Origin: an uncultured Opitutaceae bacterium
Lineage (GTDB): Bacteria; Verrucomicrobiota; Verrucomicrobiia; Opitutales; Opitutaceae
NCBI GenBank assembly: GCA_963974355.1
Contig: CAXBDS010000003.1
Coordinates: forward strand, 8,299 to 72,298
Reading direction: 5' to 3'
DNA length: 64,000 nt
The translations under genes were made by a program, and so were the position numbers. The notes under the pieces are model-generated. The model did not search any database and was not told the DNA's origin. It saw nothing but the letters and a program-made list of their open reading frames with translations. Position 1 is the first letter of the stretch; each line of letters begins with the position of its first letter. Positions 28,003 to 63,149 of the stretch are shown here, in pieces.

Positions 28003-29358
28003 CTAGGATTTCGAGGGCGGAATCAGGCGATCAATCGTGATTGCCAAGCTGGCGGGCCGAATCGGCTTGTGGAGACATTCGTCGAAGCCACCGGCAAGAC
28101 ATCGCTTTACGGTTTCAACCCGCGCATCGGCGGTGAAGGCGATCAACGGGGGCAGGGCGTCCGCGACTCCTGCCGCGGATCGAAGTTTTTTAACCAAGGC
28201 AAACCCGTCCATCTCCGGCATCTGTAAATCGATGATGGCGAGGTCGGCAGAGTGTTGTTCGAAAAACGCGAACGCTTCAGCGCCGGAGCTAAAACCCGAA
28301 ACGTCATGGCCCATGCGTTTCAGCACCATGGTCAGGATATCGACGTTGTTTTTCACATCATCGACGACGACAACGCGTAACCTGCGACTATGGTCAGGGA
28401 TGCGCAGCTGTTTGGATTTTTGGACGGCTTCCGCCGGAGCAGCGGCCGGCAGCGGCAGCGTGAAACGTAGTTCTGTGCCGCGACCAAGCTCGCTCGATAA
28501 GCGCAGCGAACCACCCGCCAGCCCGACGAGACGTTCGCAGGTGACCAAGCCAAGCCCTGACCCGCGAATGCGGTCGTGCGGGTCGGTGCCGGCTTGGGCG
28601 AATGGTTGAAAAAGCAGCTTTTGCTGCGCATCGTCTAAACCCGGTCCCGTGTCGGAGATGACGAAACGATAACGGCGGATTTGCCCCGACTCGGCGGTGA
28701 TCGGTTCGGCGAGAAAGTGGACGCCCCCCGTCTCTGTAAACTTGATCGCGTTACCGATCAGATTGACGAAAACCTGCTGCAGGCGAAGCGCATCTCCCAT
28801 GACCAGGCAGGGGCCCGGCAGGCGACAATCGATTCGGAAATAGAGCCCTTTGCTCTCCGCAGCCGATTGAAACAGATTTTTGGTTCGGTTAACCGCTTCG
28901 GCTAGGTCGAAGGGGGCCACGTTAAGTTCGAGCCGCCCGGCCTCAATCCGCGAAAAATCGAGGACGTCGTTGACGAGCGAAAGCAACAGTTCGGCGGAGC
29001 TCGATATCGTGTCCAGCAAAGACGCATGACCGGGATCGCTGATTTGATCGCGGAGCAGGGCGGTCGCACCGATCACACCGTTGAGCGGCGTGCGAATCTC
29101 GTGGCTGATCCGCGCGAAAAACTCGCTCTTCGCCGCACTCGCCTTGACCGCCGTTGCGTGCGCGACTTCCAACTGCGCCGTGCGCTCGGCCACGCGCGAC
29201 TCAAGATCGGTGTTCAGCTGCGAGAGCTGTTCGTTAGCCAAATGAAGCGCCAACGATTTTTCTTCGAGCAGCCGTTCGGCCTCGATGCGGGCCCGCTGAG
29301 CTCTCGCCAAGCGGCGTGCAAGCAAAACGGGATCGGAAGGAGCGGGCGCCGGTTCCAT
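28003..29358 (-). CDS. Cytoplasmic hybrid histidine kinase (HisKA-HATPase-REC), H-NOX-associated type
   Basis: N-terminal coiled coil ARIEAERLLEEKS; [40 protein letters not shown]; TAATG overlap with the H-NOX stop. Confidence 0.93.
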   Translation of the reverse strand: MEPAPAPSDPVLLARRLARAQRARIEAERLLEEKSLALHLANEQLSQLNTDLESRVAERTAQLEVAHATAVKASAAKSEFFARISHEIRTPLNGVIGATALLRDQISDPGHASLLDTISSSAELLLSLVNDVLDFSRIEAGRLELNVAPFDLAEAVNRTKNLFQSAAESKGLYFRIDCRLPGPCLVMGDALRLQQVFVNLIGNAIKFTETGGVHFLAEPITAESGQIRRYRFVISDTGPGLDDAQQKLLFQPFAQAGTDPHDRIRGSGLGLVTCERLVGLAGGSLRLSSELGRGTELRFTLPLPAAAPAEAVQKSKQLRIPDHSRRLRVVVVDDVKNNVDILTMVLKRMGHDVSGFSSGAEAFAFFEQHSADLAIIDLQMPEMDGFALVKKLRSAAGVADALPPLIAFTADARVETVKRCLAGGFDECLHKPIRPASLAITIDRLIPPSKS

Positions 29359-29912
29359 TATTCAGCTTTCGGAGCGCGCCGAATTAGGAAACGGACAAAC
29401 GGTCCGGTGCTGTCCTCCCGTTCCGACTGATCGATCATTCCGGTCTCACCGTAGTATTTCAGGCACCCCTGAATAAGCCCCTTGGCCAAATACTCGAGAT
29501 GGCGTGAGGAGTAGTAGTCGAACCGCAGCAGATCCGGTTCTTCGCGGACCGTGACGAAACGCGGCAATTCCGCGTCCGGATACAGCTTTTTCACCTCCAC
29601 GTGAATGTAGCTTTCGACCGACTCGAGGAACTCAAACGCATCGGATCCGTTGGCAAAAAAACCCGGATAGTGTTGATGGAAAAACGTAAGAAGGTGCTCC
29701 CCAAAACGCTCCAGCAGATCCGCGGCCGGTATGCCCGACGCCTTGCTGAAGGCGGTTAACAGTGTGACCGCTTCGGCATGATCGTAGTTGCCGACCGCCG
29801 TATAGGCTCCGCCCGAAGGCAGATTGGATTCTTCGATGATCGCCTCAACCCGGTCGGGTCCTAACATTTCGTCCGCCATCGTGAGGAGTTCCGTAAAAAC
29901 CATTCCTTTCAT
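29358..29912 (-). CDS. Heme-NO/O2-binding (H-NOX) protein
   Basis: MKGMVF start, GAYTAVGNYDH, proximal His in YIHVEVKKLYP, YxSxR (YYSSR) and GLIQG motifs. Confidence 0.92.
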   Translation of the reverse strand: MKGMVFTELLTMADEMLGPDRVEAIIEESNLPSGGAYTAVGNYDHAEAVTLLTAFSKASGIPAADLLERFGEHLLTFFHQHYPGFFANGSDAFEFLESVESYIHVEVKKLYPDAELPRFVTVREEPDLLRFDYYSSRHLEYLAKGLIQGCLKYYGETGMIDQSEREDSTGPFVRFLIRRAPKAE

Positions 29913-29927
29913 CGTAGTTGCGAGGGG

Positions 29928-31430
29928 TTAGTGACGTAGGGAGCGAAGATGCTTCCAACCTCCGGCCAGCGTCGCCGCGCCGACCAACGCACCGCGCCAA
30001 GCCAAATCCGGCAAGCCGGCAGTGGAATCAATCGGCGCAAACCAAAGCAACGCGCCAAGTAAAAGAGCCGCGGGCACAGCGGCGAAAAATCCCGGAAGAT
30101 AAGCTTCCCTCAGAAGCGCGGACAACGGTCGCTCCGTAAACCGAGCCGTCAGCGGAAGTATCCAAAATACCCCGACAAGAACGGTCGGCACAAAGGTGCC
30201 GGCCGCCACCCCGGCCACGCCAAAATGACGAACCAGTAAAAAGCTGAGCGCCAGATTGGCGCAGGCGTCGACCACGCTCGCGCGGAGCAGCGGTTTCTCC
30301 CAACCGCACATCATGAGCACCCGTTTCGAACAACTGCTGGTCAGCAACGACGACAGCGTGGCCCCGATGAGCAGCCAACCGGTTTGCCGGATCGCGGGTC
30401 CGATGGTTTCCAGTCCAGTCAACAACCGCACCAAGGGTTCAAGATAGGCCGCGCATAACAGGCCCAAGGGAACCACGAGCGCGGTGGTCATCCGGGTGCT
30501 TGCGGTGAGCAAATGCAAGAGGGCCGCCCGGTCGCCCCGCGCGTGCAATTGGGCGGCCGCCGGGGTGAGCGCGTCCTGCAGTTGCACCGCAAAGAGGCCA
30601 TACATTTCCGCCGCCTTGTAGCCCGCTTGGTAAACTGCGACGAAGGCGACGCCGATCATCACACTGATCACCGCCTGATCGGTGCGCGACATGATGAGGT
30701 TGGTGAATGTGATCGTGTAAGCCACGAGTGAAAACCCCAGCACCCCCTTGATACTGGCGGGGTGAAAGTGTTGCGGAAAAAGACTCAGTCCCGGTGCCCG
30801 CTGAAATACCAGCAGCGCCGCCGTCGCATTCGGCAAAACTGCCGTCGCTACGCTGATGAGCATTACGGCCGGAAATGACCAGCCGTGGAGGAGGGCGTAA
30901 GTCAGCAGGGCCAAATTGATCGCGAGGCCACCGATCAGCAGCCAGTTGACGAGATCGATCCGCTGCAGTCCCCGCAGCATTTCGGGAAACAAACCAGCGG
31001 GCAATCCGGCGGAGAGAAATACAAAAAATACCAAGTAGGCTCGACTGAAGTCGGCGCGGTGCTCGGCAGGCACTTTGACGGCGTCAAGGAAGACGCCGCG
31101 CATCGCCAGCGCCACGACCAAGAGCAACACGCCCGCAGCGCAGAACGACCAAAATACCGTGGCAACCAGCCGACTCGCTTCGGCAAAACGACCGTGAGCG
31201 GACGCTTCGGCGACGGCTTTTTGCACCGTGAAGCCCAGTCCAAAATCGAGCAGCACGGTAAATCCGAACAGAGACCAGAGCAGCGAATAGAAGCCGAACG
31301 CGGCCGGTTCCAGATATTGATAGGTGAGCCGAAACAGCACGATCCCACCGCCCAAACGTAGGAGCACCCGCAAATAGTTAGTGGAGGTGTTGATCCAATA
31401 ACGCTTCTGCCAAGTGTCAGGCGCGGCCAT
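29928..31430 (-). CDS. Wzx-type oligosaccharide flippase
   Basis: Many TM segments with LLDFGLG, GLQRID, TDQAVIS and YQAGYK patterns, within a GT cluster. Confidence 0.85.
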   Translation of the reverse strand: MAAPDTWQKRYWINTSTNYLRVLLRLGGGIVLFRLTYQYLEPAAFGFYSLLWSLFGFTVLLDFGLGFTVQKAVAEASAHGRFAEASRLVATVFWSFCAAGVLLLVVALAMRGVFLDAVKVPAEHRADFSRAYLVFFVFLSAGLPAGLFPEMLRGLQRIDLVNWLLIGGLAINLALLTYALLHGWSFPAVMLISVATAVLPNATAALLVFQRAPGLSLFPQHFHPASIKGVLGFSLVAYTITFTNLIMSRTDQAVISVMIGVAFVAVYQAGYKAAEMYGLFAVQLQDALTPAAAQLHARGDRAALLHLLTASTRMTTALVVPLGLLCAAYLEPLVRLLTGLETIGPAIRQTGWLLIGATLSSLLTSSCSKRVLMMCGWEKPLLRASVVDACANLALSFLLVRHFGVAGVAAGTFVPTVLVGVFWILPLTARFTERPLSALLREAYLPGFFAAVPAALLLGALLWFAPIDSTAGLPDLAWRGALVGAATLAGGWKHLRSLRH

Positions 31431-32676
31431 GATGTTGAACCGTTTCGGTCAGATAGGTTTCGATTTGCCCGGTGATGGCCGCAAGGTCGTAGCGCTCTCG
31501 AACCTCCCTCAAGCCGGTCGCGGCCATTCGATTTCGCAGCTCCGGATCTTCGTCGATTCGAGCAATGGCGGCGGCGCATGCGACGTCATCGCCCGCCGGA
31601 TACACCAGCCCGTTCTCGCCGTTGCGAAACAGCTCGCGACTGCCGCCGCTCGGCGTGCCTACCACCGGCAACCCGGCGGACATTCCTTCCAACGGCGTTA
31701 ACGCAAACGGTTCCTCCCAGGCCGATGTGAAAACGAGCGCATCGTGGCGGGCATAGATTTCCGGCATCTCGGTCGAAGGCGCGCTGGTAAAGGTGACTGC
31801 GGAGGTGAGGCCGAGTTTATTAATCTCCGCCGTCAATGTCGCGACATAGTCATCGGGGCCACGGCCGTAGAGTGTCAGTGACAAGTGACGGCGGCCTTCG
31901 CCATGCAGGCGACCCAAAGCTCGAATCGCCGTCAACGGGTCTTTGTCGGGATCAAGGCGTCCCACGAAAAGAAGCTTCTCGAATCGATCCGAACCCGGGC
32001 GAGTCGTGTAGAGTTGCGTTTCAACGCCGCAATAGATCACGGCGGCATGATCGACCGCCCACCCCTTGGAGAACGTGATTTCCCGCAGCGCAGCGCTGCA
32101 AAAATAAATGCGATCAAACACAATCTCCCGCCAAGGCGCAAAGGGCGCCCGCCGGCGAATGCGTTCCGCCAAACCGGTTGCGCGCAAGACGGTGCGGAGC
32201 AGCCGGGCCCCCGAACCGCCGGTATCGCCGTTCCACCAACGCAGCCATACGTCGGCGCGCAGGCTCCGCGCAATCCAGTGGTCGGAGACGTCGAAAACGA
32301 CCGGGCCGCTCCACTGCCGAAGCGTCAGTATCAGGCTTTTGGATATTCCACCGAGATTCCAGACGTGCACCACATCCGGCGCAAACGCGGCGATCTCCTC
32401 CCGCAGAACCGTGTGATTGTGGCGTTCGAGCTGATAAAGCCGATGCACCGGCAGCCACGGATGCCCGAAAAAGCCATGCACACTCAGGCGCCGGGCGACA
32501 TGAGGGGGATCGGCCGGCAGACTGGACGGGCCAGTGGATTTCACGCGGTGGTTCGATGTGAGCACGCGAACCTCTTGGCCTCGCCCGCAAAGGCCATCCA
32601 CAACGCGGCGACAGCGCTCCTCGTAACCACCGATGGCGTGGGGCGGGTAAAGATTCGTGATGACAAGTATTTTCAT
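31417..32676 (-). CDS. GT4 glycosyltransferase
   Basis: MKILVITNLYPP...GG, FVGRL, and EPFALTPLEGM (EX7E) motifs. Confidence 0.92.
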   Translation of the reverse strand: MKILVITNLYPPHAIGGYEERCRRVVDGLCGRGQEVRVLTSNHRVKSTGPSSLPADPPHVARRLSVHGFFGHPWLPVHRLYQLERHNHTVLREEIAAFAPDVVHVWNLGGISKSLILTLRQWSGPVVFDVSDHWIARSLRADVWLRWWNGDTGGSGARLLRTVLRATGLAERIRRRAPFAPWREIVFDRIYFCSAALREITFSKGWAVDHAAVIYCGVETQLYTTRPGSDRFEKLLFVGRLDPDKDPLTAIRALGRLHGEGRRHLSLTLYGRGPDDYVATLTAEINKLGLTSAVTFTSAPSTEMPEIYARHDALVFTSAWEEPFALTPLEGMSAGLPVVGTPSGGSRELFRNGENGLVYPAGDDVACAAAIARIDEDPELRNRMAATGLREVRERYDLAAITGQIETYLTETVQHHGRA

Positions 32677-32691
32677 GGGATAGGGGGCGCG

Positions 32692-33558: not shown

Positions 33559-33584
33559 TTGCGCTTTAGCATCGTCATCAAACC

Positions 33585-33599
33585 GCAAATTTGAAACCA
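33585..33599 (-). promoter_or_regulatory. Candidate sigma54 (-24/-12) promoter for the GT2-GT4-flippase-H-NOX operon
   Basis: Minus strand TGG-TTTCAAAT-TTGC has exact GG-N10-GC spacing 27 nt upstream of the GT2 start, but lacks the CAC of the consensus -24 box. Confidence 0.4.
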
Positions 33600-33606
33600 A
33601 ATCGGC

Positions 33607-35247
33607 ATGGAAAGTGAGCGTTTTGTTCATGTTGTCGGCCATCAATGCCCCGATACCGACTCGGTGGTTTCTGCGGTGGTCGCGGCGCGACTCTTCAACA
33701 AAACGGATTCAGGAGCGCTTTATGAGGCTCTGATGCAAGGCGTGGCCAATTCTCAGACCGTGTGGCTGTTCGAACAAGCGGGCGTCCCGTTGCCACGCAT
33801 CCGGGCAGACGTGCGTCCCACCGTCGCCGAGGCCTGCTTGCCACCGCTTTCCGTCACGCCGGATCGACCGATGGGGGAGGCGCTCGATCTTCTTCATGAA
33901 CACGCGTTCAGTCTCGTTCCGGTCGCATCGGAGGAGGGGCGGTTTCTGGGCGCGGTTGGATTTTCGCTCCCGGAAGCACGCTACCTGACGCACTTCAACA
34001 TGGAGGATTTCCTCGGCTCTTTGGTGACGATCGAGGAGTTGGCTCGCGGCCTCGACTTGGTGGCAATGAATCCGGCCGCCACCACTTATCGTGATCCGGC
34101 GGAGTCCTCCCCCGCCGCATTCCGACTTTATCCTGGCGGAGGTCAGGTTAACGCCGGCGACCTGATCCTAACCGGTGCCAACGCCGCCGCAGTCACGTTT
34201 GCCGCCGAGGCCGGAGCATCTGCAGTCGTGTTCGCTGATTGTGCGGAGGCCGAGGTGCGGCGTTGGAGCCAAGGCGTCACCGTCCCCATCTATCGTTTCG
34301 CGGGATCGTTGATGGCGCTGGTCAATCAGCTGCCTCGCGCCATTCCGGTCGGCCGTTTGATGAGCCCATCCGTGCCGACCGTGCAGACGGAAGACGTCCT
34401 CGAAGATTTACGGCCGATTTTCGCCCGCACCGCCCATGCGTTGCCGGTTTTGGATGGAAACGGGCATTTATGCGGCATGATTTCGCGGCGAGAAGCACTG
34501 CAGCCGCCTCGACGTGGACTCGTGCTCGTCGATCACTTTGAACGCACCCAAACCGTCCGGGGCTGGGAAAATACCGAGATCCTGCAAATCATCGACCACC
34601 ACCGCGTGGGCGGATTGGAAACCGTCGAGCCTGCCCGTGTCGATTGCCGGCCCCTGGGCAGCACGGCCAGCATCTTGGCATTGCGCTACATCGAAGCCGG
34701 CATCGAGCCCGACGAAGCCGAGGCCACCTTGCTCTTGGGCGCATTGGTGGCCGACACCCTGTTGCTCACTTCACCCACGACCACCGCGAAAGATCGCGAG
34801 ATTGCCCGGCAACTCACGAAACTCAGCGGACTGGATCTGCCCACTTTCGGGCGGGAGGTGTTGGCTCGTAACGACGGCTTGGCCACGGACTCGGCCAGCG
34901 CGTTGGTCACGCGCGACCTCAAGGCATTTTCGCATGGCGAGGTCAGTTTCCTTCTCGGGCAAATCGAGACCGTGGACCTGTCGCTCCTCGACGCCTCCCG
35001 GGCCCGTGACTTGCGTAAGGCGCTGGACGAGGCACGCGGTCGGGCGGGTGCGGCCTTCGCCGTGACCATGGTGACGGATGTGCTGCGCGGCGTCAGCGCC
35101 TTCTTAATGGCCGATGCCGATCAAAGGCGAATGCTGCATCTTTTCGAGAATGCCGACCCATTGAATAACGTCGAATACGAGATGGTCTCACGAAAGAAAC
35201 AGCTGGTGCCCTTGGTGATGGCGCGGTTGGCCACCTATAAATCATGA
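33607..35247 (+). CDS. Family II Mn-dependent inorganic pyrophosphatase with CBS-DRTGG-CBS insert
   Basis: GHQCPDTDS, LVDH, IIDHH, DLKAF and SRKKQLVP motifs, with a central CBS/DRTGG-like region. Confidence 0.88.
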   Translation: MESERFVHVVGHQCPDTDSVVSAVVAARLFNKTDSGALYEALMQGVANSQTVWLFEQAGVPLPRIRADVRPTVAEACLPPLSVTPDRPMGEALDLLHEHAFSLVPVASEEGRFLGAVGFSLPEARYLTHFNMEDFLGSLVTIEELARGLDLVAMNPAATTYRDPAESSPAAFRLYPGGGQVNAGDLILTGANAAAVTFAAEAGASAVVFADCAEAEVRRWSQGVTVPIYRFAGSLMALVNQLPRAIPVGRLMSPSVPTVQTEDVLEDLRPIFARTAHALPVLDGNGHLCGMISRREALQPPRRGLVLVDHFERTQTVRGWENTEILQIIDHHRVGGLETVEPARVDCRPLGSTASILALRYIEAGIEPDEAEATLLLGALVADTLLLTSPTTTAKDREIARQLTKLSGLDLPTFGREVLARNDGLATDSASALVTRDLKAFSHGEVSFLLGQIETVDLSLLDASRARDLRKALDEARGRAGAAFAVTMVTDVLRGVSAFLMADADQRRMLHLFENADPLNNVEYEMVSRKKQLVPLVMARLATYKS

Positions 35248-37924: not shown

Positions 37925-37955
37925 TTCCCTTTTGCGACTTAGCCCCCAAAAAAAG

Positions 37956-38324
37956 ATGCCCGATCACGATCAAAATCAGACCGTAAACTGGGTTCAATTG
38001 AGCGAGTTGATCGGAGACGAAGACGATCAGTCCCAACGTGAGCTGCTCGGCGAAATGTGGCGCGACATGGTTAAGGATGTTCACGCTGGCTGGAATCAGG
38101 TTGACTCGCAGGCCGACCCTCAGGAGCTGAAACGCGACCTACATCGAATTCGCGGCCTAATCTCGATGTGGGGGGTCGACGCGCTGGCCCAAATACTCCT
38201 GGCCATCGAGCATGATCCCGATCCTGTAAATGCGTCGGCCCGCCAAGCGGCAAACATCGGCACGCTTTGGGCCGAGACTCGCGGAGGCATCGAACAGCGA
38301 TACCCATGGTTGGCGGCGATGTGA
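37956..38324 (+). CDS. Stand-alone Hpt phosphotransfer protein
   Basis: About 120 aa, helical, with LKRDLHRIRGLISMWG matching the Hpt H-x-x-K/R-G motif. Confidence 0.72.
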   Translation: MPDHDQNQTVNWVQLSELIGDEDDQSQRELLGEMWRDMVKDVHAGWNQVDSQADPQELKRDLHRIRGLISMWGVDALAQILLAIEHDPDPVNASARQAANIGTLWAETRGGIEQRYPWLAAM

Positions 38325-54519: not shown

Positions 54520-56405
54520 CAACTGGATCGACGACGTTTCCACCACGGCAGCGCATCGGTGACGATAAGGCCGTGCAACCGGATCCCGGCGTCGCGCAAA
54601 AGGCGGGCCTGGCGTTGCCACGTTGAAATTGAGGCATGATCCGCCGAGATCACCAGCACGGCGCCCCCCCATTCCCGCGCGAGAGTGAGGGCCGGCTCCA
54701 CCGTGTCGCCCGATAGCCGAGCCCAGAAATCGGAAGGCGCGGAGTTGTGGGCTGCGGCTTGCGCCGAAGCGAGGGTCAACGCAGCAGGATCGAGCCGAAT
54801 CGCCCCCGGCAACGACGGGTGTGCGCTCGTGCCGGCGTCGACCGTGATCAACTCCGGTTGCAGGCGAAAGGCTTCCGCCAAGAGGGCGCCCCAAAGCCGA
54901 CCTTCCGAGGGAGTTGCAGCCGGAGCCCAAAGCACCGCCGGGCGATTCTCCGCCGCGGCCGGTGTGGCCCATGTCACCCAAAGCGAACGCACGGTGGAGG
55001 CGGGATTCGCTCCCGGCTCGAGCGTGGCCAGCAAGGGTGCCTTGAAAATCCGCCGGGCTTCAAAAGCGGAGCGTAACCGTTGATCGAATACCTCGCGCAC
55101 AATCACCAGGAACACTCCGAAACCACCGCCCAGCACCAATCCGGCGGCGGCGTAAACAAACAATTTCAAAGTGCGCGAGGTGGACGCAACCGACTGAGGT
55201 GTCGCCGTGCTGAAAATCTGGTAATACCCGGGAGCACGTTCGCTATAGAGCGTTGCCTCTCGCAACCGACTGGCCAGCAACTGCCGCGCCGTTTCCAAGC
55301 CCCTTTGCACGAGTTTTTGGCGAGCCAAGGCCGCCACTTTTTCCGGCAGCTCTTCCACCCGGGCCCGGGCGGAGTCGCGCAGCTCTGTCAATCCAGCCAG
55401 TTGTTTTTCGGCCCCGTCACGCCGCGCCCGCAGATCGATTAGCTCGAGATAGAGCGTTCCTCCGATGGCGGTCGACGCATAGTCAGCCAACGACAGTTCG
55501 CGACCCTTGTCAGCCGCCGCCGATTCCAACGCCGCGACCTTGGCCTGCAGGTTTTGCACGATCGGGTTCTTCTCGGTGAAGCGTCCCAATGCGTCCTGCA
55601 GTTCGGCACGTGCCGTGATGAGGCGATCGTCGTTCGCCGAGTAGCGCGCAAGTTCCGATTCGAGTGCCTTCAGCTTAAACTCGACCGTCTGGAGATCGAT
55701 GCGCGCGGTCTCGTAGCGGAGGTCGAGATCGGCCAACTGACGCAAAAACACGTCGGTCTGTTTTTCGGCGTCGACCAGATTTTCGCGTCGCGAAAACGCG
55801 AGCATCTCTTGGTTGATGCGATTCAGATCCGCATCGGTGGTCTCGATCTGCTGCTGAAGGTAAGTGCGAACCTCGCGGCTTTCCCGCGTCTGCAACTCGC
55901 GCGAAAATTCTACGATCTCCGCCGCCCATAGATTCACCAGATCGGCCGCTGCTTGGGCTGATTCCGTTCGCCGAGCCGTGAGTTGCAGAAAGTCGGTGTT
56001 CCGGATTTCGACGGCGTCGGTGTTGAGCCGCAGCATACCCACGGATATCGGTGGATCGGCCTGCGCGGAGACTCGCGTAAGCACATTGTCGGACAGGGCC
56101 GAGGTGATCAGCGTCGCGGTGCTAAGTGATCGTGGCTTGTAGGGATCACCGATCTCACCGGCTCTAAATGTGGTTGAGGGTTCGCGCTTGATAAGCCGTG
56201 CCATCGCCTCGTAGCGGTCACTCGCCCGGAAGTGCCCCGCAGCGAGGAACAGCATGAGCCCCAACACCGCGCTGAGGATAACCCAGCGATACCGTTCGAG
56301 TAATGATCCCGCGAGCCGGAATGGATCGAAGACGATGTCGAGTCCTATTCCCCCTGGGGCCGGCGCCGGCGCTGGGTGAGGGGAGGACGTTGTATCAGCG
56401 TTCAT
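54519..56405 (-). CDS. Polysaccharide co-polymerase (Wzc/GumC-like) with degenerate kinase domain
   Basis: TM, long coiled coil containing FTEKNPIV, second TM, then REVFDQRLRS and a C-terminal domain without a GK(S/T) Walker A. Confidence 0.8.
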   Translation of the reverse strand: MNADTTSSPHPAPAPAPGGIGLDIVFDPFRLAGSLLERYRWVILSAVLGLMLFLAAGHFRASDRYEAMARLIKREPSTTFRAGEIGDPYKPRSLSTATLITSALSDNVLTRVSAQADPPISVGMLRLNTDAVEIRNTDFLQLTARRTESAQAAADLVNLWAAEIVEFSRELQTRESREVRTYLQQQIETTDADLNRINQEMLAFSRRENLVDAEKQTDVFLRQLADLDLRYETARIDLQTVEFKLKALESELARYSANDDRLITARAELQDALGRFTEKNPIVQNLQAKVAALESAAADKGRELSLADYASTAIGGTLYLELIDLRARRDGAEKQLAGLTELRDSARARVEELPEKVAALARQKLVQRGLETARQLLASRLREATLYSERAPGYYQIFSTATPQSVASTSRTLKLFVYAAAGLVLGGGFGVFLVIVREVFDQRLRSAFEARRIFKAPLLATLEPGANPASTVRSLWVTWATPAAAENRPAVLWAPAATPSEGRLWGALLAEAFRLQPELITVDAGTSAHPSLPGAIRLDPAALTLASAQAAAHNSAPSDFWARLSGDTVEPALTLAREWGGAVLVISADHASISTWQRQARLLRDAGIRLHGLIVTDALPWWKRRRSS

Positions 56406-57535
56406 GAGTGGGCGGCGGCGCGATAGATTTCGGCGGTGGCCTGAGCGCAATGAGTCCAAGCGAATTGTTGGGCCCGCGCGAGCCCGCGTTGTCGCCAATC
56501 ATCGGGCGATGACAGCACGTCAAGGAGGCCGGCAACCATGGCGTCGGGGTTTTCCGGATCGACGATCCGGGCCGCGTCAGCCACGACCTCGCCGAGTGAA
56601 CCGCGATCCGAGCACACCACGGGGCAACCACAGGCCATTGCCTCTATCGGCGGCAGTCCGAATCCCTCAAAGAGCGACGGATATGCCAAAAGATCGGCCC
56701 CGGCATACCACAGGGGCAAATCTTCGGCGGTGACAAAACCCGTCGTGCGAATCCGGTCCCGCAGCGGCGATGCCGCCACGCGGGCATGAATCACCTCTGC
56801 TCCATGCCAATCCGCACCGGCCAGCACGAGGTCGTGGGGCAGGCCCGGCTGGATAATCGCCAGACGTTCAAACGCCTCGATCAAGCGCACGTGGTTTTTC
56901 GCCGGGTGCTCCAAGCGAGCGAGATAAACCATGTAAGGGCGCGGCAGATTCTGACGGAGCCGAAACTCCGCCAACGCGCCATCGTCAGCGGGGCGAAAGC
57001 GGCGATGATCAATACCGTTCCAGACCACATCGATCTTGTCCACGGGCCAATGAAAGAACCGTTCCACATCCGACGCGGTCGCCTGGCTCACGGTAACCAG
57101 ACGGCGCGCCTTCCGAGCCAATCGCGGAACCACGTGGCGCCCGTAAGCCATCCGGGCGGCATCGTATTTTCCCCGCACGTGAAACGCCGCGCAGTCGTGA
57201 ACCGTAACCACCTGCGCGCACGGAGGTCGAAACAAGATGCGGCGGTAGCTGGGGATGTGCACCACATCGGCGTTGATCGCGCGTAAGCGTCCCGGGAAAA
57301 GGACCTGATGCCACCAAATGTCCCTGACCGCGGGTCGCCACTTTTCTGATACCTCCTCCCAGGAAACACGATCAAGCCACGGCTCGAAGTGAATGCGGTC
57401 ATTCCGCAGGCCAAAAAGTGTCAGTCGAATATCCGGGCACGTGCTGACAAGCCCCTCTATCAGGCCAAACAAATATGCGGCTACGCCCGACTTCCCCCGC
57501 TGGTTGACACTGGTGCTGATCGCGACGTGAGGCAT
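56402..57535 (-). CDS. GT4 glycosyltransferase
   Basis: VVTVHD, VWNGID, KNHVRL and YPSLFEGFGLPPIEAMACG motifs. Confidence 0.94.
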   Translation of the reverse strand: MPHVAISTSVNQRGKSGVAAYLFGLIEGLVSTCPDIRLTLFGLRNDRIHFEPWLDRVSWEEVSEKWRPAVRDIWWHQVLFPGRLRAINADVVHIPSYRRILFRPPCAQVVTVHDCAAFHVRGKYDAARMAYGRHVVPRLARKARRLVTVSQATASDVERFFHWPVDKIDVVWNGIDHRRFRPADDGALAEFRLRQNLPRPYMVYLARLEHPAKNHVRLIEAFERLAIIQPGLPHDLVLAGADWHGAEVIHARVAASPLRDRIRTTGFVTAEDLPLWYAGADLLAYPSLFEGFGLPPIEAMACGCPVVCSDRGSLGEVVADAARIVDPENPDAMVAGLLDVLSSPDDWRQRGLARAQQFAWTHCAQATAEIYRAAAHS

Positions 57536-57540
57536 GGATT

Positions 57541-58953
57541 TCAGGACGTTTCAAACAAGCGGTCGAGATGGGTCTGGCGCAGCAATAAATCAGGTTGGCC
57601 GGTGACACCGCGGAGGGAAAGTTCACCGCCGCGTTTACGCGTGAGTCGGCGGATTTTCAGCAGCCAGCCGATGCCGGAACTGTCGATCAGACGGACGTGG
57701 CTGAGGTTGAGGCTGAGATGATTTGAGGTCGGGTGTCGGCGCCACGCCTCGTTGAGCCAACGGCTGGCGGCCGCGAGACGAGGTGCCGTAAGATCGCCCT
57801 GGCACGAAAGCACCAACTCCCCCGGACCGGACGGTTCCAAGTGCGGGGTCATCCCCGGTGTTTGTTGACGGCACTGTTCGACTGCCGAGTCCACCGTGGT
57901 GGCGCAGACGAAGAGTCGGTCGAGATGGACCGCCGCAAGGAGATTCAACACGTAGGGCGACGGGGCCAATAGCACCAAACCTGCGCCTTGGTTTTTCACC
58001 TCACGATAGAGGGAAACCAAACGTCCGAGTCCAAAACTATCCATGAACACCACCGCCCGTAGATCGAGTAAGAGACCGCTGGGCGTCTCCGCGATCTCAC
58101 AAGCCGGTAGTGACTCCACTGTGCCACTTTCAATTCGCCCGGCCCAAACCACGAGTCTCAAGTCGGCGGGTATCGTCGGAGTTCCAGCGGAAACGACGTC
58201 GCGCGAATCGAGCCCGCGTGACTGATCCTTGAAACGCCTAATGAAAAAAACGAGTTGGGCCGAGTATTTCAGGGTTCGCGCCCAAGGATGATGGAGCCAC
58301 CAATGAACCCAGGCGAGCCCGCGACGCCCCCAAGCTGTAGGCACGCGGCTGACCCGACCGGCCGTCACGGCCAGACCGTCGCCGATACCGATCAACAGGG
58401 GCGTATCCAACCACGGCAATTGACGATAGACCCACTCGGTTTCGATGGCCGGGGGTAATCCCACGAGCAGCACTTGAAGATTCGCGTTTCGGATTTGCTC
58501 TCGCTGCCAGTCCTCGTCGGCGACCGGGCCGTGTAAGAGGGTCGGGGGAGAGAGCGTCGGATGCGCTACCGACAACCGCGCCGCTGCGGCCGTGAGGTCT
58601 TCTTTTTGGGGGCCGAGCAGACCGAGTCGCCATCCCTTTTCCGCCACGAGTTTCGCCACGATATCCGCGATTTCGCCCCCCGTAAACGGAGCCGGAATCG
58701 CCACCCCCAGCCGACCAGCGGCCCATGCCAGCGCGGAACTCGCGCACAGCACTGCGGTGCATTCGGCCAAGATCGTCTGGCGCAACACGTCGCGGTCGCA
58801 AGTCACGGCCTCGGACATCGTGCCAAGCGCGATTTGGTTCGGGCGCCGGGACGCGACACAATCAGCCAACAAATCGGGCAAGGCGGCACGCTCAATCGCG
58901 AGCAAGGGCAGGCCGAGGACGACGGATTGCTGACCTAGGGCAGCTACGGTCAT
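57541..58953 (-). CDS. Degenerate WecG/TagA (GT26) domain fused to two STAS domains
   Basis: Colinear with the upstream paralog but with eroded catalytic motifs; STAS motifs FMDSFGLG and LIDSSGIG. Confidence 0.75.
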   Translation of the reverse strand: MTVAALGQQSVVLGLPLLAIERAALPDLLADCVASRRPNQIALGTMSEAVTCDRDVLRQTILAECTAVLCASSALAWAAGRLGVAIPAPFTGGEIADIVAKLVAEKGWRLGLLGPQKEDLTAAAARLSVAHPTLSPPTLLHGPVADEDWQREQIRNANLQVLLVGLPPAIETEWVYRQLPWLDTPLLIGIGDGLAVTAGRVSRVPTAWGRRGLAWVHWWLHHPWARTLKYSAQLVFFIRRFKDQSRGLDSRDVVSAGTPTIPADLRLVVWAGRIESGTVESLPACEIAETPSGLLLDLRAVVFMDSFGLGRLVSLYREVKNQGAGLVLLAPSPYVLNLLAAVHLDRLFVCATTVDSAVEQCRQQTPGMTPHLEPSGPGELVLSCQGDLTAPRLAAASRWLNEAWRRHPTSNHLSLNLSHVRLIDSSGIGWLLKIRRLTRKRGGELSLRGVTGQPDLLLRQTHLDRLFETS

Positions 58954-60401
58954 TCGATCGAAAACAGGTTATCCATCTTTGCCAGACGGAATACATTGCG
59001 CACGTTTTCCGTGGGCTGGCTGATAATGAGTTTGGCGCCGGGGCGCGCCGCCGTCAGGCGGTGGACATGCAACAGGAGCCCAAGTCCGCTGCTGTCCATA
59101 AAACGCACCGCAGACATATCGACGACCACGCGCTTCGCCGTGGGACGGGCCGCCCAAAGATCATCGATCCAACGCAACAGACCGGGAGTGCGCGTGGCAG
59201 TAAGTTCGCCTTGGATCGGGAGCATCAAGTCCTCCGCACTACTCGCCGCAGCTGAAGTCGGTCGCGTCAATCCTAGCGCCGCCCGAGCTCGCGCCGGCTC
59301 GTCGATGATCGGAAATAATCGCGCCAGCTTCATGGCGTCGAGCAAACCGGCCACGGCCGGCGACGGATTCACCAAGGCGAGACCGCCCCCCCCGGCGATG
59401 GCGCGCCGATAGGCCGCGAGCATAAAGCCCAGACCGCTGCTATCGAGAAAGCTCACTGCGGAGGTATCGAGCGCGATGGCGGTGCCCGCCGACAAATCAG
59501 CGGAGGGATCGACTATTTGGGCGCCTGCAATCGCCGCCGCATCGACCCGGCCGGACCAGCGCACGGAACGCACATCGCCGGACAGCATCGGGGCAGCCGG
59601 CGGCGGGACATTCGGGCTGGATACCGCGGCCTCGGGGCGCACGGCCAACGCCCGGCGTTGCGCGCGAAGTGCCCGCACAAAGAACAGCAAATCGACGAGG
59701 TAACGACTAAAGAGACGACGCGGCTCCTGCATGAGCCGAAACACCCATTCCGCACCGACCACCTGCATCCACCGTGGCGCACGCTTAAATTTACCCGCGA
59801 GAAAATCCACCGTCGCGCCGACACCCACGCTCATCGGCACGCCGAGGCGACGATGATGCATAAAGATCCACTTCTCTTGTTTCGGACAGCCGAAGGCGAC
59901 GAAAAGCACGTCAGGACGAGCGCTTGTGATGCGTTGCTTGATCGTGTTGAAGTCCATTTCGAGCAACTTTGCAAACGAGGGCGAGTAGCCATCGATTTGC
60001 AACCCGGGGTGGCTCGCCCGCAAATTGGCCAAAGCCAGCGGAAGCGTTTCTTCTCCGCCCCCGAGCAGGAAAATCTTCCACCCCTTCTCCGCCGCCTCAG
60101 CCGCGAGGCGAGGCACCAGATCCGAGCCGGCCACGCGCTCCCGCAGTGGTGCGCCCAACGCCTTCGACGCCCACACCAACGGTGTGCCGTCGCACAACAC
60201 CAAATCGGCCTCGACGAGGATGCGTTGCAGTTCGACATCCTCACTCGCCTGAAACGTGAAGTCCAGATTGGCGGTCGCCCAATAACACGGCTGACGCCGC
60301 TCGATCAATTGGCCGAGGCGAGTGACGGTCTCATCCATCGTGACGTCGTGAAACGGAACTCCGAGGATCACGACCGAGCGGGGTGGGGCGAGGTTAGCCA
60401 T
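58950..60401 (-). CDS. WecG/TagA (GT26) glycosyltransferase fused to two STAS domains
   Basis: TANLD, LCDGTP, RVAGSDL, FGCPKQEKW and EWVFRLMQEPRRL; STAS motifs FLDSSGLG and FMDSSGLG. Confidence 0.9.
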   Translation of the reverse strand: MANLAPPRSVVILGVPFHDVTMDETVTRLGQLIERRQPCYWATANLDFTFQASEDVELQRILVEADLVLCDGTPLVWASKALGAPLRERVAGSDLVPRLAAEAAEKGWKIFLLGGGEETLPLALANLRASHPGLQIDGYSPSFAKLLEMDFNTIKQRITSARPDVLFVAFGCPKQEKWIFMHHRRLGVPMSVGVGATVDFLAGKFKRAPRWMQVVGAEWVFRLMQEPRRLFSRYLVDLLFFVRALRAQRRALAVRPEAAVSSPNVPPPAAPMLSGDVRSVRWSGRVDAAAIAGAQIVDPSADLSAGTAIALDTSAVSFLDSSGLGFMLAAYRRAIAGGGGLALVNPSPAVAGLLDAMKLARLFPIIDEPARARAALGLTRPTSAAASSAEDLMLPIQGELTATRTPGLLRWIDDLWAARPTAKRVVVDMSAVRFMDSSGLGLLLHVHRLTAARPGAKLIISQPTENVRNVFRLAKMDNLFSIE

Positions 60402-61605
60402 GGCGGGAAATCAGCGTTTCGTAGTGGGCGTGAAGGTGTCGGGTGAGGCTGGGCCAGCCGTAGCGTTCGAGGATACGCCGGCGGCCAGCGACGCGCAGAC
60501 GGGCCCGCAGAGCCGCATCGCTCGCCAAGCGCTGGATGGCGGTCGCAAATTCGTCCGGCGTATCCGCAAGAAGGATATGCTCGTCATGGGTCAGCTCAAG
60601 CCCCTGCGCGCCAAGCGTGGTGGAGATCACCGGGCAACCAATGGCCAGCGATTCGACGATCTTCAGCCGGGTGCCACCGCCGATCCGGAGCGGCACGATC
60701 TGAAAGTGGGCAGTCTGGTAGTGGGGCCGCACATCGGGCACTTCCCCCGTGACCATCACCCCCGTCAGTTCGCCATGGGCCTGAACGGCCGCCAAGGGAT
60801 TGCGCCCAACAATCTGCACCCGGCGTTGCGGCACCAGCGCCCGCACCAGCGGATCAATCGCGGCAAAATACCAACCCAAGGCATCCACGTTGGGCGAATA
60901 ATCCATCGCGCCGCAAAAAAGCCACGTCGGCGCCTCGGGCTCGCGGGGAGGGAAGCTGTCTTGGTCAAAAAAAGTCGTATCGCACCCGTTGGGTAAAACG
61001 AAGACCGGCGCATTTGAGCTGACGTGTTCCCGCATGAAATCCGCATCATCGGGGCCGCAGACCACAATACTCGCGAGATCGCGCGCGGCCGCCCGTTCGA
61101 CCCGGCGTAGTTTCCAAAGATTTTCCCGGCGCAGCCAACGCTCCTTGGTGGAGAGCTGGAGGGTTCTCAGCTCCTCGGTTTGGAACAATAGATCGACTCG
61201 GCTGCGATCCATTGATCGCGGCACAGGATGGGGCAGGCGGCGCACATAGGGCCAAAGGACGAGATCACAGAAATGGATGAGCCCGTAGTCATGCCCGTCT
61301 GCAAATCGGGCCAGGGCATCGTGAGCCGACGGATCCTCCCAATGCCGGATGGTCGTCGGACAGAGGTTGAGCAGCCGGTCCGGAAACAGACGCGGCCAGG
61401 ACGGATGGCGAAACCGATGGAAGTGAACGCGCCGACAAAAGCCCTCAAAAACCGGAAGCTGCGCTTCGGCCTCCCCATTTTCGTCGAGGCAAAAGAGATC
61501 GATCTCGTAATAGCGGGCGAGTTCACGAAGCAGATGAAACGTGCGCTGGAAAGTCCCTCGGGTTACGGGATAAGGAGCGTAAGGATAAACAACGAGGACG
61601 CGCAT
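60394..61605 (-). CDS. GT4 glycosyltransferase
   Basis: FCGAMDYSPNVDA, IVGRNP, and PLRIGGGTRLKIVESLAIG motifs. Confidence 0.92.
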   Translation of the reverse strand: MRVLVVYPYAPYPVTRGTFQRTFHLLRELARYYEIDLFCLDENGEAEAQLPVFEGFCRRVHFHRFRHPSWPRLFPDRLLNLCPTTIRHWEDPSAHDALARFADGHDYGLIHFCDLVLWPYVRRLPHPVPRSMDRSRVDLLFQTEELRTLQLSTKERWLRRENLWKLRRVERAAARDLASIVVCGPDDADFMREHVSSNAPVFVLPNGCDTTFFDQDSFPPREPEAPTWLFCGAMDYSPNVDALGWYFAAIDPLVRALVPQRRVQIVGRNPLAAVQAHGELTGVMVTGEVPDVRPHYQTAHFQIVPLRIGGGTRLKIVESLAIGCPVISTTLGAQGLELTHDEHILLADTPDEFATAIQRLASDAALRARLRVAGRRRILERYGWPSLTRHLHAHYETLISRHG

Positions 61606-61701
61606 AGAGTCGTGCAGAATGACTATCTAACCGCCAAAATCTCGGTCTGCCGGATGTTTCGCGAGGGCGAGCAAACCACGACTCGCAACGTGTTACTTAA
61701 A

Positions 61702-61727
61702 CGCATTTGCGTAAACACGTAAATGCG
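61702..61727. repeat. Inverted repeat: terminator of the activator gene or a DNA-binding site
   Basis: CGCATTTGCGT-AAAC-ACGTAAATGCG (11-bp arms, one mismatch); followed on the minus strand by TTTAAGT. Confidence 0.55.
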
Positions 61728-61742
61728 GGTCGGGCCGCGAAA

Positions 61743-63149
61743 TTACGAGCCGCTGATCCGATCACGCGCGGCTTTGGTCCGCCAGCGATAGAGCGTCGTC
61801 GGGTGAATGCCGAGTTGCGAGGCGACCCATGAGTGGTCTCCGTCGCTTTGGGCCAACAGCGTTTCGGCCAACTCACGCCGTTGGCGCTTGTTGAGGGTCG
61901 TGGTCGCCCCGGGAACGGAGACCGGGGCAGCGTTAGCGACCGCCGGCGCAATCGCGGCCGCGGGCGGTGACCAAGCGCCGTCGCGCAGGACGGGGCCGTG
62001 CGCCAACAGGACCAAACGCTCGATCGTGCTGCGCAACTCGCGCACGTTCCCCGGCCACGTCCAAGCCTGCAGGCGCTGCAGCAACGCGGGTTCCATACTT
62101 GTAACCAAACGCCCGTGGTGCTCCGCCGCGACCTGCAGGAAATGACGACAGAGCAGGGGAATATCGTCCGCGCGCGCACGCAGAGGCGCGAGTTCGAGGG
62201 TAATATCCGCCAGCCGGTAGTAGAGGTCTTCGCGAAAGGTTCCGGCCGCGACTCGGGCGAGAAGATTGGCGTTGGTCGCCGCGATGATGCGGACGCTTAC
62301 GGCGTAGTCGGTGCGCGCCCCGAGACGACGCGCCCGGCGAGTTTCAAGAAAGCGCAACAGCTTGGGTTGTAGCGTGCGGTCGAGATCGCCAATTTCATCC
62401 AAAAACAGGGTGCCTCCGTCGGCTTGCTCAACTAGTCCGGGCCGATCAGTCACGGCGCCGGTGTAGGCGCCCTTGGTTGCCCCAAACAGCTCCGCCTCAA
62501 GCAGCTCCCGCGGCAGGGCGGTGCAATTGATCGCGACGAAAGGACGTTGTGGTTCGGTTCCCGTGGCGTGCAAAGCCTCGGCCACCCGCTCCTTGCCCGT
62601 GCCTGACTCGCCCAGCACCAGCACCGTGGCAGAGGTCGGCCCCACGCGAGCAATCATCTCGCGCAAGCGCTGCCATGATTGAGACTGACCAATGAGGCCA
62701 TCGGGGGGCGGAGCGACCGGCTTGGGAAACAGCTGTGCCCACGCATGCTCGGCCGCCGCCGCCGCTTCCAATGCGGAACGCCAACGCCCGGCCGATTCAT
62801 CCACCGCGACCGCATCATAAGCGCCCTCGCGCAAAGCCGTCGTCGTCTCCGCCGTGCGTGCCCCAGCCGGAAGGAGCACGACAAAAAACCGTCCTGATTC
62901 CGCCAGACGCACGCGGACAAAACGCCACGCCTCGGTCGTCAGCTCGGCGGCCCCGATCAGAAGAACAGGGGTCGCCGTCGAGTCTTGGCCAGCTGCGGTC
63001 GCGGGCCATTCCATCCAGGCTTCGAGCGAAGAAAAGAGCGGCGACGGATCACCCCGGCTGGCGGCAGCTTGAAGGAGGTTACGGCGGATCGCCTCAGTCG
63101 CTCCACCGACAAATATGCATTGAATATGCATGGTAAATGCAATGCACAT
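61743..63149 (-). CDS. Sigma54-dependent activator (bEBP) with atypical N-terminal domain
   Basis: GESGTGKE, INC, ELFGATKGAYTGA, TLFLDEIG, QPKLLRFL, FREDLYYRL, WPGNVREL and a Fis-type HTH; start is 63149 or 63131. Confidence 0.93.
   Translation of the reverse strand: MCIAFTMHIQCIFVGGATEAIRRNLLQAAASRGDPSPLFSSLEAWMEWPATAAGQDSTATPVLLIGAAELTTEAWRFVRVRLAESGRFFVVLLPAGARTAETTTALREGAYDAVAVDESAGRWRSALEAAAAAEHAWAQLFPKPVAPPPDGLIGQSQSWQRLREMIARVGPTSATVLVLGESGTGKERVAEALHATGTEPQRPFVAINCTALPRELLEAELFGATKGAYTGAVTDRPGLVEQADGGTLFLDEIGDLDRTLQPKLLRFLETRRARRLGARTDYAVSVRIIAATNANLLARVAAGTFREDLYYRLADITLELAPLRARADDIPLLCRHFLQVAAEHHGRLVTSMEPALLQRLQAWTWPGNVRELRSTIERLVLLAHGPVLRDGAWSPPAAAIAPAVANAAPVSVPGATTTLNKRQRRELAETLLAQSDGDHSWVASQLGIHPTTLYRWRTKAARDRISGS
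63112..63146. repeat. Helically phased ATGCA repeats
   Basis: AATATGCAT (63112), AATATGCAT (63123) and TAAATGCAA (63134) at an 11-nt period, plus ATGCA at 63142. Confidence 0.55.

Follow-up and report, generated by a model that had tools for sequence, protein, structure and literature searches.

Direct control of an exopolysaccharide (EPS) transferase by a partner switch has been described in Anabaena sp. PCC 7120, where such a switch acts on All4160, an EPS transferase fused to a STAS domain, as published in 2026, and STAS–transferase fusions are common in cyanobacteria (both bioRxiv 10.64898/2026.04.08.717354; PMC13555669). Here, we describe an EPS cluster of the Wzx/Wzy type, ~35 kb in size (positions 28003-63149), from a marine Opitutaceae-like verrucomicrobium; it lies within a stretch of 64,000 nucleotides that was analysed as a whole and is referred to below as the window. 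On balance, we favour the reading that this cluster has a built-in, partner-switching-like phospho-switch, which would act via a relay on a GT26 glycosyltransferase fused to two STAS domains.

In principle, the closest described system is the All4160/HenR/Alr3423 module, to which XssP and All2285 are related. In both cases, an EPS transferase carries, as a fusion, a STAS domain with a phosphorylatable Ser, a PP2C phosphatase is combined with an RsbW-type kinase, and a receiver domain ties the phosphatase to two-component input; moreover, the output of the All4160 module is direct control of an enzyme with no sigma factor involved, and the same is proposed here. The differences concern both the enzyme and the layout. 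The enzyme of the window belongs to GT26 (TagA/WecG, acting at the second step), whereas All4160 is a priming transferase of the Bac_transf family, and its STAS domain is C-terminal and duplicated rather than N-terminal and single. The kinase and phosphatase share one chain with a GAF domain, and the receiver is encoded by a separate gene. Finally, all of the parts lie inside the EPS locus, whereas all4160 is located outside the HEP island, and the phylum differs.

In signalling logic, the closest systems are Syp of Vibrio fischeri and the HptB-HsbR-HsbA pathway of Pseudomonas aeruginosa with NahK. By architecture, the locus shares with Syp an hnoX–hybrid kinase operon and a single-domain, SypA-like STAS protein, together with several hybrid kinases that converge on one Hpt, an RsbW-kinase/PP2C pair that addresses a single-domain STAS, a σ54 activator and an EPS locus of the Wzx/Wzy type. 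However, SypE is an RsbW-REC-PP2C protein in one chain, whereas here an RsbW-GAF-PP2C protein is accompanied by a separate REC; the receiver of SypG is functional, whereas that of its counterpart here is degenerate; the Hpt is part of SypF in V. fischeri but stand-alone here; hnoX-hahK is unlinked to syp; and no STAS-fused transferase has been described for the syp locus. An earlier note on this DNA, made from the letters alone, drew the parallel to Syp: it is good for the signalling logic, but fails for SypG, on account of the pseudo-receiver, and for SypE, on account of the GAF domain and the separate REC. The feature itself is real and conserved, and 'parallel to Syp' describes its logic, not its membership.

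The NosP/NahK-HptB-HsbR-HsbA pathway, which controls the biofilm lifestyle of P. aeruginosa, likewise runs from hybrid kinases that lack an Hpt domain (one of them responsive to nitric oxide (NO)) to a stand-alone Hpt, then to a receiver-controlled PP2C/RsbW kinase and on to a STAS protein. HsbR is a REC-PP2C-kinase protein in one chain, in contrast to the kinase-GAF-PP2C protein and separate REC found here; the NO sensor is NosP rather than H-NOX; the outputs are FlgM, HsbD and regulation of RpoS, with no biosynthetic enzyme among them; and, unlike here, the genes lie outside EPS loci. Against these two precedents, the control of All4160 and the NO-responsive NahK-HptB-HsbR-HsbA pathway, the earlier designation of the locus as a candidate new system does not hold. 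The enzyme, too, has a described relative, namely the wall-teichoic-acid N-acetylmannosamine transferase TagA/TarA (PDB codes: 5WB4 and 7MPK); the protein of the window differs in being Gram-negative and EPS-associated and in carrying two STAS domains. A literature search found no paper on a verrucomicrobial GT26–STAS fusion, and the label given to the fusion by automated annotation is 'WecB/TagA/CpsF family protein/anti-anti-sigma factor'.

The conserved core of the locus

The window is contained within a TARA Oceans metagenome scaffold of 113,981 bp (ENA ERZ2783015 scaffold_329), and the nearest named relatives of its DNA are metagenome-assembled genomes (MAGs) of the Opitutaceae. The 31 long open reading frames (ORFs) of 28003-63149 were scanned with Pfam profiles; bit scores, cutoffs and E-values for locus genes are those of Pfam unless NCBIfam or the Protein Data Bank (PDB) is named. 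Every domain listed in the earlier note was found, with strong scores, the Hpt being marginal and above its cutoff. Comparison of the window with ~170 related loci (identified by L-numbers; flanks of 10 kb) distinguishes a conserved core from variable parts. The core is a Wzx/Wzy-type EPS cluster with an RsbW-GAF-PP2C protein, a single-domain REC, a lone STAS beside a protein of 374 amino acids (aa) and a GT26 transferase with two C-terminal STAS domains; the variable parts are the sensor kinases, Hpt, FIST, H-NOX and the σ54 activator. The switch and transferase genes are as follows:

42455-42844, minus strand: single-domain REC (PF00072, 74 bits), with the canonical DD, D, T and K residues present
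42841-44559, minus strand: bifunctional protein, RsbW-like Ser kinase, GAF and PP2C phosphatase (HATPase_c_2 75 bits, GAF 31 bits, SpoIIE 137 bits)
47788-48102, plus strand: stand-alone STAS with DSSG motif (PF01740, 58.7 bits)
48104-49228, plus strand: conserved 374-aa protein, partner of the lone STAS (motif GGYGRGEGG...YNDLEF; possibly like Pol-beta/MNT nucleotidyltransferases)
57541-58953, minus strand: dead GT26 paralogue with two intact STAS domains (WecG 74.6 bits)
58950-60401, minus strand: GT26 (WecB/TagA/CpsF) transferase with C-terminal appendage and tandem STAS (WecG 200 bits; two STAS matches)

The GT26–STAS fusion and its paralogue

Residues 1-250 of the 58950-60401 protein align to TagA (7MPK; E 9e-42), and the equivalents of TagA T37, N39, D65, R83, Q167 and E168 are all retained, together with the Arg-rich C-terminal appendage, which places the protein within GT26. 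In TagA, the appendage is needed for both catalysis and membrane association (PMC6493773). The STAS pair adds ~230 residues to the TagA-like part and comes directly after the appendage. An AlphaFold (AF2) model, calculated using 42 homologues, has a predicted local distance difference test (pLDDT) value of 91.2 and a predicted template-modelling (pTM) score of 0.89, with low scores only in the linker comprising residues 254-271. When this model was submitted to Foldseek, it matched TagA with template-modelling (TM) scores of 0.91-0.93, and SpoIIAA/RsbV with TM scores of 0.72-0.83; structurally, the STAS domains come closest to SpoIIAA and RsbV, among them entries that show these proteins bound to their kinases. 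In the 42 homologues, which share 46-71% identity with the window protein, no substitution of D320 or D436 occurs, and conservation of S321 and S437 is 90% or higher.

The adjacent protein, 57541-58953, keeps both STAS phospho-Ser motifs, but all eight TagA residues compared are replaced (equivalents of T37L, N39T, D65A, R83P, Q167E, E168T, R214W and R221A), and it is, therefore, a pseudo-enzyme. The earlier note had four STAS domains fused to glycosyltransferases: the fusions are genuine, but one of the two GT26 carriers is catalytically dead. This paralogue occurs only in the species-level lineage of the window, and is absent from L004, L005 and L090; since it is missing in relatives at ≤72% identity, it is a recent, dead, regulatory-looking duplicate, and it may serve as a decoy or a regulatory subunit.

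The kinase/phosphatase, its STAS partners and the relay

The 42841-44559 protein combines a GHKL Ser kinase of the RsbW/SpoIIAB type, complete with N-box and G-boxes, and a PP2C phosphatase (SpoIIE/RsbU) with its metal-binding Asp residues. The invariant residues across 40 homologues are E49 and N53 of the N-box, G106-R107-G108, and D369, D387, D508 and D561/D562 of the PP2C domain. All five STAS domains of the locus bear the Asp-Ser phospho-motif, four as DSSG and one as DSFG, in agreement with the five Ser-bearing STAS domains counted earlier. No sigma factor is encoded within the locus, the nearest being an ECF sigma factor outside it (17806-18471); as there is consequently no sigma factor in the locus to act as the switched partner, we use the wording 'partner-switching-like'. 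The last 4 nucleotides (nt) of the kinase/phosphatase gene are shared with the REC gene, which suggests translational coupling.

The 374-aa protein gave no match to Pfam, NCBIfam or PDB profiles. Its GGYGRGEGG...(Y)ND motif is invariant, usually continuing as LEF, and the protein is kept phylum-wide, often paired with a free STAS. A single-sequence AF2 model was unusable (pLDDT 36.6); from the motif, we would guess that the protein is nucleotidyltransferase-like.

In domain content, the locus resembles a multikinase phosphorelay of the HptB-HsbR-HsbA type: there are three hybrid kinases (HisKA-HATPase-REC) with no Hpt match, and one stand-alone Hpt. The residues for a His-Asp-His-Asp relay are present, namely, the H-boxes of the kinases, the receiver Asp residues and the Hpt His. 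Small ORFs of Hpt size, matched by size and place, occur at the equivalent position in L089 and L091. The relay and sensor genes of the window are as follows:

28003-29358, minus strand: hybrid histidine kinase, HisKA-HATPase-REC without Hpt, partner of H-NOX (Pfam; H-box SHEIRTPLN and REC Asp present)
29358-29912, minus strand: H-NOX haem NO/O2-binding protein (PF07700, 134.7 bits)
37956-38324, plus strand: stand-alone Hpt (PF01627, 26.7 bits against a cutoff of 24.6, E 6.9e-6; motif HRIRGxxxxxG)
38767-40650, plus strand: membrane hybrid histidine kinase with a periplasmic PDC-like region (Pfam; weak MCP-like_PDC_1, E 0.013)
49279-51228, minus strand: hybrid histidine kinase with two REC domains, partner of FIST (Pfam; 4-nt overlap with the FIST gene)
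51225-52355, minus strand: FIST_N and FIST_C sensor protein (126.5 and 121 bits)

Conservation across the Verrucomicrobiota

The earlier note had proposed a comparison of synteny across the phylum, and this comparison bears out the association: the RsbW-GAF-PP2C and REC pair, the lone STAS and the GT26–STAS fusion recur in the same EPS cluster across the Verrucomicrobiota. Starting from the GT26-STAS-STAS protein, >2,500 relatives were retrieved, and the WecG+STAS architecture is common to all of the top 120. With one genome taken per species, the full-length fusion is found in Opitutaceae, Chthoniobacterales, Verrucomicrobia subdivision 3, Limisphaerales, Verrucomicrobiales, Phragmitibacter and Lentisphaerales, and in one Desulfonatronospira MAG; in Prosthecobacter-like genomes, the equivalent cluster has a plain GT26 with no STAS. 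When the tandem STAS alone was used as the query, 112 representatives of 50%-identity clusters were obtained at E≤1e-10, and ~39 of the best 150 matches are proteins of 450-520 aa that were matched at residues ~270-480.

The recurrent cluster order is: left-handed beta-helix protein (LbH) - RsbW/GAF/PP2C - REC - phosphodiesterase - GT4 - Wzx - GT2 - GT4 - 374-aa protein - GT4 - GT26-STAS - GT4 - Wzz - outer-membrane polysaccharide export protein (OPX) - OPX - Wzy-like (the biosynthetic genes of the window, including GT4a to GT4e, are listed in the final section). Two close contigs (L089/L090 and L091; 56-71% identity) have the same order as the window, gene for gene, from GT4e to GT2, and share FIST with its kinase, the third kinase, two small ORFs at the Hpt position, STAS with the 374-aa protein, and RsbW/PP2C with REC. 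Three farther Opitutales contigs have the order GT4d-Wzz-OPX-OPX-[exosortase]-374-aa/STAS-GT4c-PGT-LbH-RsbW/PP2C-REC-phosphodiesterase, where PGT is the priming phosphoglycosyl transferase, and no FIST, H-NOX or Hpt is found in them. In other verrucomicrobial orders (L016, L027 and L040), the cluster is rearranged and complete, reading LbH-RsbW/PP2C-REC-phosphodiesterase-...-374-aa protein-GT4e-GT26-STAS-GT4d-Wzz-OPX. In several compact arrangements, the switch genes adjoin GT26-STAS, their proposed target, directly: L134 reads STAS-STAS-RsbW/PP2C-REC-GT26-STAS-sigma54, L124 is similar, and L114 is described below.

The locus counts derive from phmmer searches with single window proteins against stop-to-stop ORFs, so that they are approximate and probably undercounted; on this basis, and considering metagenome loci with enough flank, REC lies directly downstream of the RsbW/PP2C homologue in 42 of 64, an LbH gene lies upstream in 25 of 46 and a PGT gene in 22 of 41, and a free STAS is present in 26 of 34. 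Additionally, nine pairs of GT26-STAS and RsbW-PP2C homologues are found on contigs of equal size, suggesting that the two members of each pair share the same contig.

Proposed mechanism and alternatives

In the mechanism that we propose, kinases of the H-NOX, FIST and PDC types would pass phosphate to the Hpt and thence to the lone REC. Phosphorylated REC, together with a ligand of the GAF domain, would set the balance between the kinase and phosphatase activities, in parallel with the internal REC of SypE or HsbR, and it would, in turn, depend on this balance whether the lone STAS and the STAS pair behind GT26 are phosphorylated. By analogy with TagA, GT26 would add the second sugar on the lipid-linked primer made by the adjacent PGT, and would so catalyse the first step that is specific to the pathway. 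As for SypA and All4160, STAS would be permissive in its unphosphorylated form, and phosphorylation of STAS would keep GT26 inactive, plausibly through interference with the C-terminal appendage. We favour post-translational control of GT26 because the DSxG motifs of both fused STAS domains are kept in 42 sequences, because the STAS domains are fused to the enzyme, and because All4160 offers a precedent; the earlier suggestion of a switch at the level of the STAS-fused enzyme is, thus, retained as the best reading of the anatomy.

A number of considerations weigh against this proposal. Phosphotransfer, STAS phosphorylation, gating by NO and the effect on GT26 are each inferred from sequence. 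H-NOX, FIST, Hpt and the σ54 activator are not conserved beyond close relatives, and H-NOX is missing at this locus even in the two closest syntenic contigs (L089/L090 and L091), which do not appear among the top H-NOX matches either. In L032, L036 and L044, the same cluster encodes a GT26 without STAS, and the fusion is, therefore, dispensable. Around half of the more distant RsbW-GAF-PP2C homologues (~30% identity) have no recognisable EPS neighbours; furthermore, in an Opitutus sp. MAG (L092), RsbW/PP2C and REC are found among housekeeping genes, and so the pair is not strictly EPS-bound. This last placement, and that of the nearest H-NOX homologues, where the H-NOX/kinase pair stands among unrelated genes, would be expected if the signalling genes were chance neighbours, or had accreted in a genome island, and regulated unrelated processes. 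We regard such an origin as highly improbable, given that 4-nt overlaps join signalling and biosynthetic genes, that synteny extends from Opitutales to Verrucomicrobiales and Lentisphaerales despite rearrangement, and that STAS is physically fused to a biosynthetic enzyme.

We also consider it unlikely that the switch works only via the lone STAS on some other target, be it the 374-aa protein, the pseudo-receiver of the activator or an unlinked sigma/anti-sigma pair, with the fused STAS domains having a structural role in dimerisation, membrane or nucleotide binding, or docking. Such an arrangement would fit the many loci in which a lone STAS gene lies directly upstream of RsbW/PP2C, as in classical rsbV-rsbW operons, the others in which the lone STAS is paired with the 374-aa protein, and the clusters noted above in which GT26 has no STAS. 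It would also suit the activator: its pseudo-receiver is conserved, adjoins GT26-STAS in L004, L008 and L134, and has no phospho-Asp, so that it would have to be controlled by means other than Asp phosphorylation. However, Asp-Ser-x-Gly is kept in both fused STAS domains across 42 diverse sequences, which is hard to explain if their role is purely structural; in the compact L114 (HK-RsbW/PP2C-REC-GT26-STAS, where HK is a histidine kinase), GT26-STAS comes directly after RsbW/PP2C-REC and no lone STAS was detected; and the precedent of All4160 speaks for a fused STAS domain as the target.

Beyond the favoured reading, of a relay-driven phospho-switch on the fused GT26, lies a bolder and rather doubtful one. 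Here, GT26-(STAS)2 would be the direct phospho-regulated output of an EPS switch that is phylum-wide in the Verrucomicrobiota (of the Planctomycetes–Verrucomicrobia–Chlamydiae (PVC) group); the STAS pair, on Ser phosphorylation by the RsbW-GAF-PP2C/REC pair of the operon, would gate the membrane-activated appendage of the TagA-like enzyme; the sensors would be swapped by lineage, H-NOX having been recruited thrice; and the dead paralogue would be a decoy or inhibitory subunit. If this were true, Rosetta-stone logic would imply that orphan EPS STAS regulators such as SypA bind a biosynthetic transferase.

In oceans, soils and guts, Verrucomicrobiota are abundant and specialise in polysaccharides; to our knowledge, almost nothing is known of how they control production of their own capsule or EPS. 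With this locus, the cyanobacterial finding of 2026 would come to cover two enzyme families and two phyla, as well as a tandem-STAS format, and the locus gives a concrete hypothesis for the target of SypA-type regulators. Moreover, the regulator, its probable substrate domains and the enzyme are encoded together, and the wiring should, therefore, be open to reconstitution from a few proteins.

Sensor inputs

The H-NOX protein matches 6OCV (E 5e-35) and 6BDE (E 3e-34), and alignment to these entries identifies the proximal haem His (within IHVEV) and the YxSxR haem-propionate motif, such that its membership of the family is clear. Its gene lies at the locus edge, 15 nt downstream of the Wzx gene, and overlaps the gene for its kinase by 1 nt. 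H-NOX was considered as a conserved part of the locus, and this was rejected, as its nearest homologues sit among unrelated genes: in all three (58-66% identity), the H-NOX/hybrid-kinase pair is kept and the genes around it are unrelated.

In two unrelated metagenome contigs, other H-NOX genes, each beside a large kinase, are associated with the module. In L161 (6792-9895), an H-NOX/kinase pair (the H-NOX having 45% identity to that of the window) is inserted between LbH and RsbW/PP2C, whereas in L167 (2003-6459), a more distant H-NOX (26% identity; like that of soluble guanylate cyclase) and a kinase lie upstream of the same operon. The simplest reading of three H-NOX lineages beside the module is that NO sensing has been recruited to it repeatedly. 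Since H-NOX is absent from close relatives, yet other lineages of it adjoin the module, NO would be an optional plug-in input. The description 'NO-gated' in the earlier note was, thus, too strong for a pair that lies at the edge and is wanting in the closest contigs, and L161 and L167 rescue it in part; judging by gene adjacency, NO would be an accessory input. FIST and its kinase are confined to the close clade (L001, L002 and L089-L091), and nothing in the data provides a basis for the redox sensing previously attributed to FIST. As a whole, the locus illustrates how sensors of different kinds (H-NOX, FIST, PDC-like) can be exchanged, in nature, as modules that serve a single output.

The σ54 activator and the PEP-CTERM context

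Two divergent genes lie at the right-hand border of the locus:

61743-63149, minus strand: σ54 activator with an N-terminal pseudo-receiver (Pfam, 213.8 bits)
63269-64000, plus strand: DUF4114 secreted protein with a PEP-CTERM signal, truncated at the end of the window (complete in L001, 6240-7133)

The activator heads the GT4e...HK operon, it is kept beside GT26-STAS in L004, L008 and L134, and its best NCBIfam match is the PEP-CTERM-box regulator PEP_resp_reg (TIGR02915; 288 bits, below the cutoff of 502.6). These are features that would be expected if Syp-like control of transcription were the main output, with the relay addressing the σ54 activator and, through it, the EPS operons, and with the STAS/PP2C layer being minor. 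We judge this decidedly improbable. In alignment, none of the conserved receiver residues (acidic pair, phospho-Asp, Thr and Lys) is present in the N-terminal domain of the activator (residues 1-150), which has no Pfam REC match at E≤10 either; without these residues, it cannot be a phosphorelay acceptor. The phospho-Asp is missing from the orthologues in L004, L008 and L134 as well, and the activator itself is absent from L090, the syntenic relative of 188 kb. Finally, the -24/-12 consensus (TGGCAC-N5-TTGC, ≤2 mismatches) is not enriched, with 66 occurrences found against 72.8 expected and none in the intergenic regions of the locus, the sole σ54-like element being TGGCAT-N5-GTGT, with three mismatches, upstream of the PEP-CTERM gene.

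The 137-nt region upstream of the GT4e operon (61606-61742) contains an imperfect palindrome, ACGTGTTTAC ... GTAACACGT, which could be the binding site of a regulator; no σ54 -24/-12 element is present in this region.

The sorting signal of the DUF4114 protein consists of TPEP, a hydrophobic helix and RRR. No exosortase gene was found in the 64-kb window; L001 carries an EpsI-like gene farther along, and the exosortase gene epsH is located inside the equivalent locus of L095. Together, the PEP-CTERM protein, the EpsI-like gene and the EpsH of L095 may link the cluster to the PEP-CTERM/exosortase type of EPS.

Other genes of the cluster

The EPS genes comprise those for a Wzx-like flippase, a Wzy-like protein, two OPX proteins, a Wzz-like protein, the priming Bac_transf enzyme and seven GT4/GT2 glycosyltransferases. 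The remaining genes of the locus are as follows:

29928-31430, minus strand: Wzx-type flippase (MatE/Polysacc_synt_3; Pfam), kept in the verrucomicrobial cluster
31417-32676, minus strand: GT4 glycosyltransferase GT4a (Pfam), syntenic in L010, L016, L017 and L018
32692-33642, minus strand: GT2 glycosyltransferase (Pfam), syntenic in relatives
33607-35247, plus strand: CBS-DHH inorganic pyrophosphatase, Mn-dependent (Pfam; NF011443 327.8 bits, just under the cutoff of 335), kept in L089 and L091
35244-36493, plus strand: GT4 glycosyltransferase GT4b (Pfam), with a -1 frameshift near 36091
36584-37924, plus strand: polytopic Wzy/O-antigen-ligase-like protein, phylum-wide (no Pfam match in the window; weak Wzy_C in the L089 orthologue)
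38335-38751, plus strand: small predicted membrane protein with no family match (positional equivalent in L089 and L091)
40651-41829, minus strand: type I phosphodiesterase/nucleotide pyrophosphatase family (PF01663)
41826-42458, minus strand: uridine kinase, PRK family (PF00485, 129 bits)
44556-45761, minus strand: left-handed beta-helix (hexapeptide) protein, LbH (Pfam)
45758-46474, minus strand: priming phosphoglycosyl transferase, PGT, Bac_transf (PF02397, 219 bits)
46471-47679, minus strand: GT4 glycosyltransferase GT4c (Pfam)
52424-53482, minus strand: outer-membrane polysaccharide export protein OPX1 (Poly_export+SLBB)
53479-54519, minus strand: outer-membrane polysaccharide export protein OPX2 (Poly_export+SLBB)
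54519-56405, minus strand: Wzz/PCP-like chain-length determinant (weak Wzz; best NCBIfam match TIGR03007 pepcterm_ChnLen, under cutoff)
56402-57535, minus strand: GT4 glycosyltransferase GT4d (Pfam), near-constant downstream neighbour of GT26-STAS
60394-61605, minus strand: GT4 glycosyltransferase GT4e (Pfam), syntenic

With start codons refined, the intra-operon junctions are overlaps of 1-14 nt, as had been reported from the letters, and mostly of 4 nt. The switch genes lie mid-way in a biosynthetic operon (GT4c-PGT-LbH-RsbW/PP2C-REC-uridine kinase-phosphodiesterase). The left border of the locus is sharp, with the housekeeping genes lepA, lepB, fabD and dapAB upstream; further out, ~10 kb upstream of the locus and with housekeeping genes in between, lie a tRNA-Lys(TTT) gene (17607-17681) and the ECF (extracytoplasmic function) sigma gene (17806-18471). 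In an Rfam scan, this tRNA-Lys was the sole match, and neither riboswitches nor RNAs of other families were found in the locus; in a metatranscriptome search, the locus was present in no RNA run.

In the window, GT4b is split into ORFs of 311 and 105 aa; the orthologue in L089 is intact (420 aa). That GT4b is a pseudogene was rejected, as the frame is restored in an independent marine metagenome contig (run X1), where a 7-nt insertion (CATGCCT) at 36091 and two substitutions give an ORF of 418 aa; we therefore attribute the split to the assembly or to strain variation rather than to a fixed loss.

The phosphodiesterase/nucleotide pyrophosphatase-family protein and uridine kinase (40651-42458), and the CBS-DHH pyrophosphatase (33607-35247), are embedded in the cluster, which suggests that recycling of nucleotide by-products is tied to EPS synthesis. 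The phosphodiesterase gene directly follows REC in L016, L018, L027, L040, L093-L095, L111 and L161, and the uridine kinase gene is found between the two in the window, L089 and L091.

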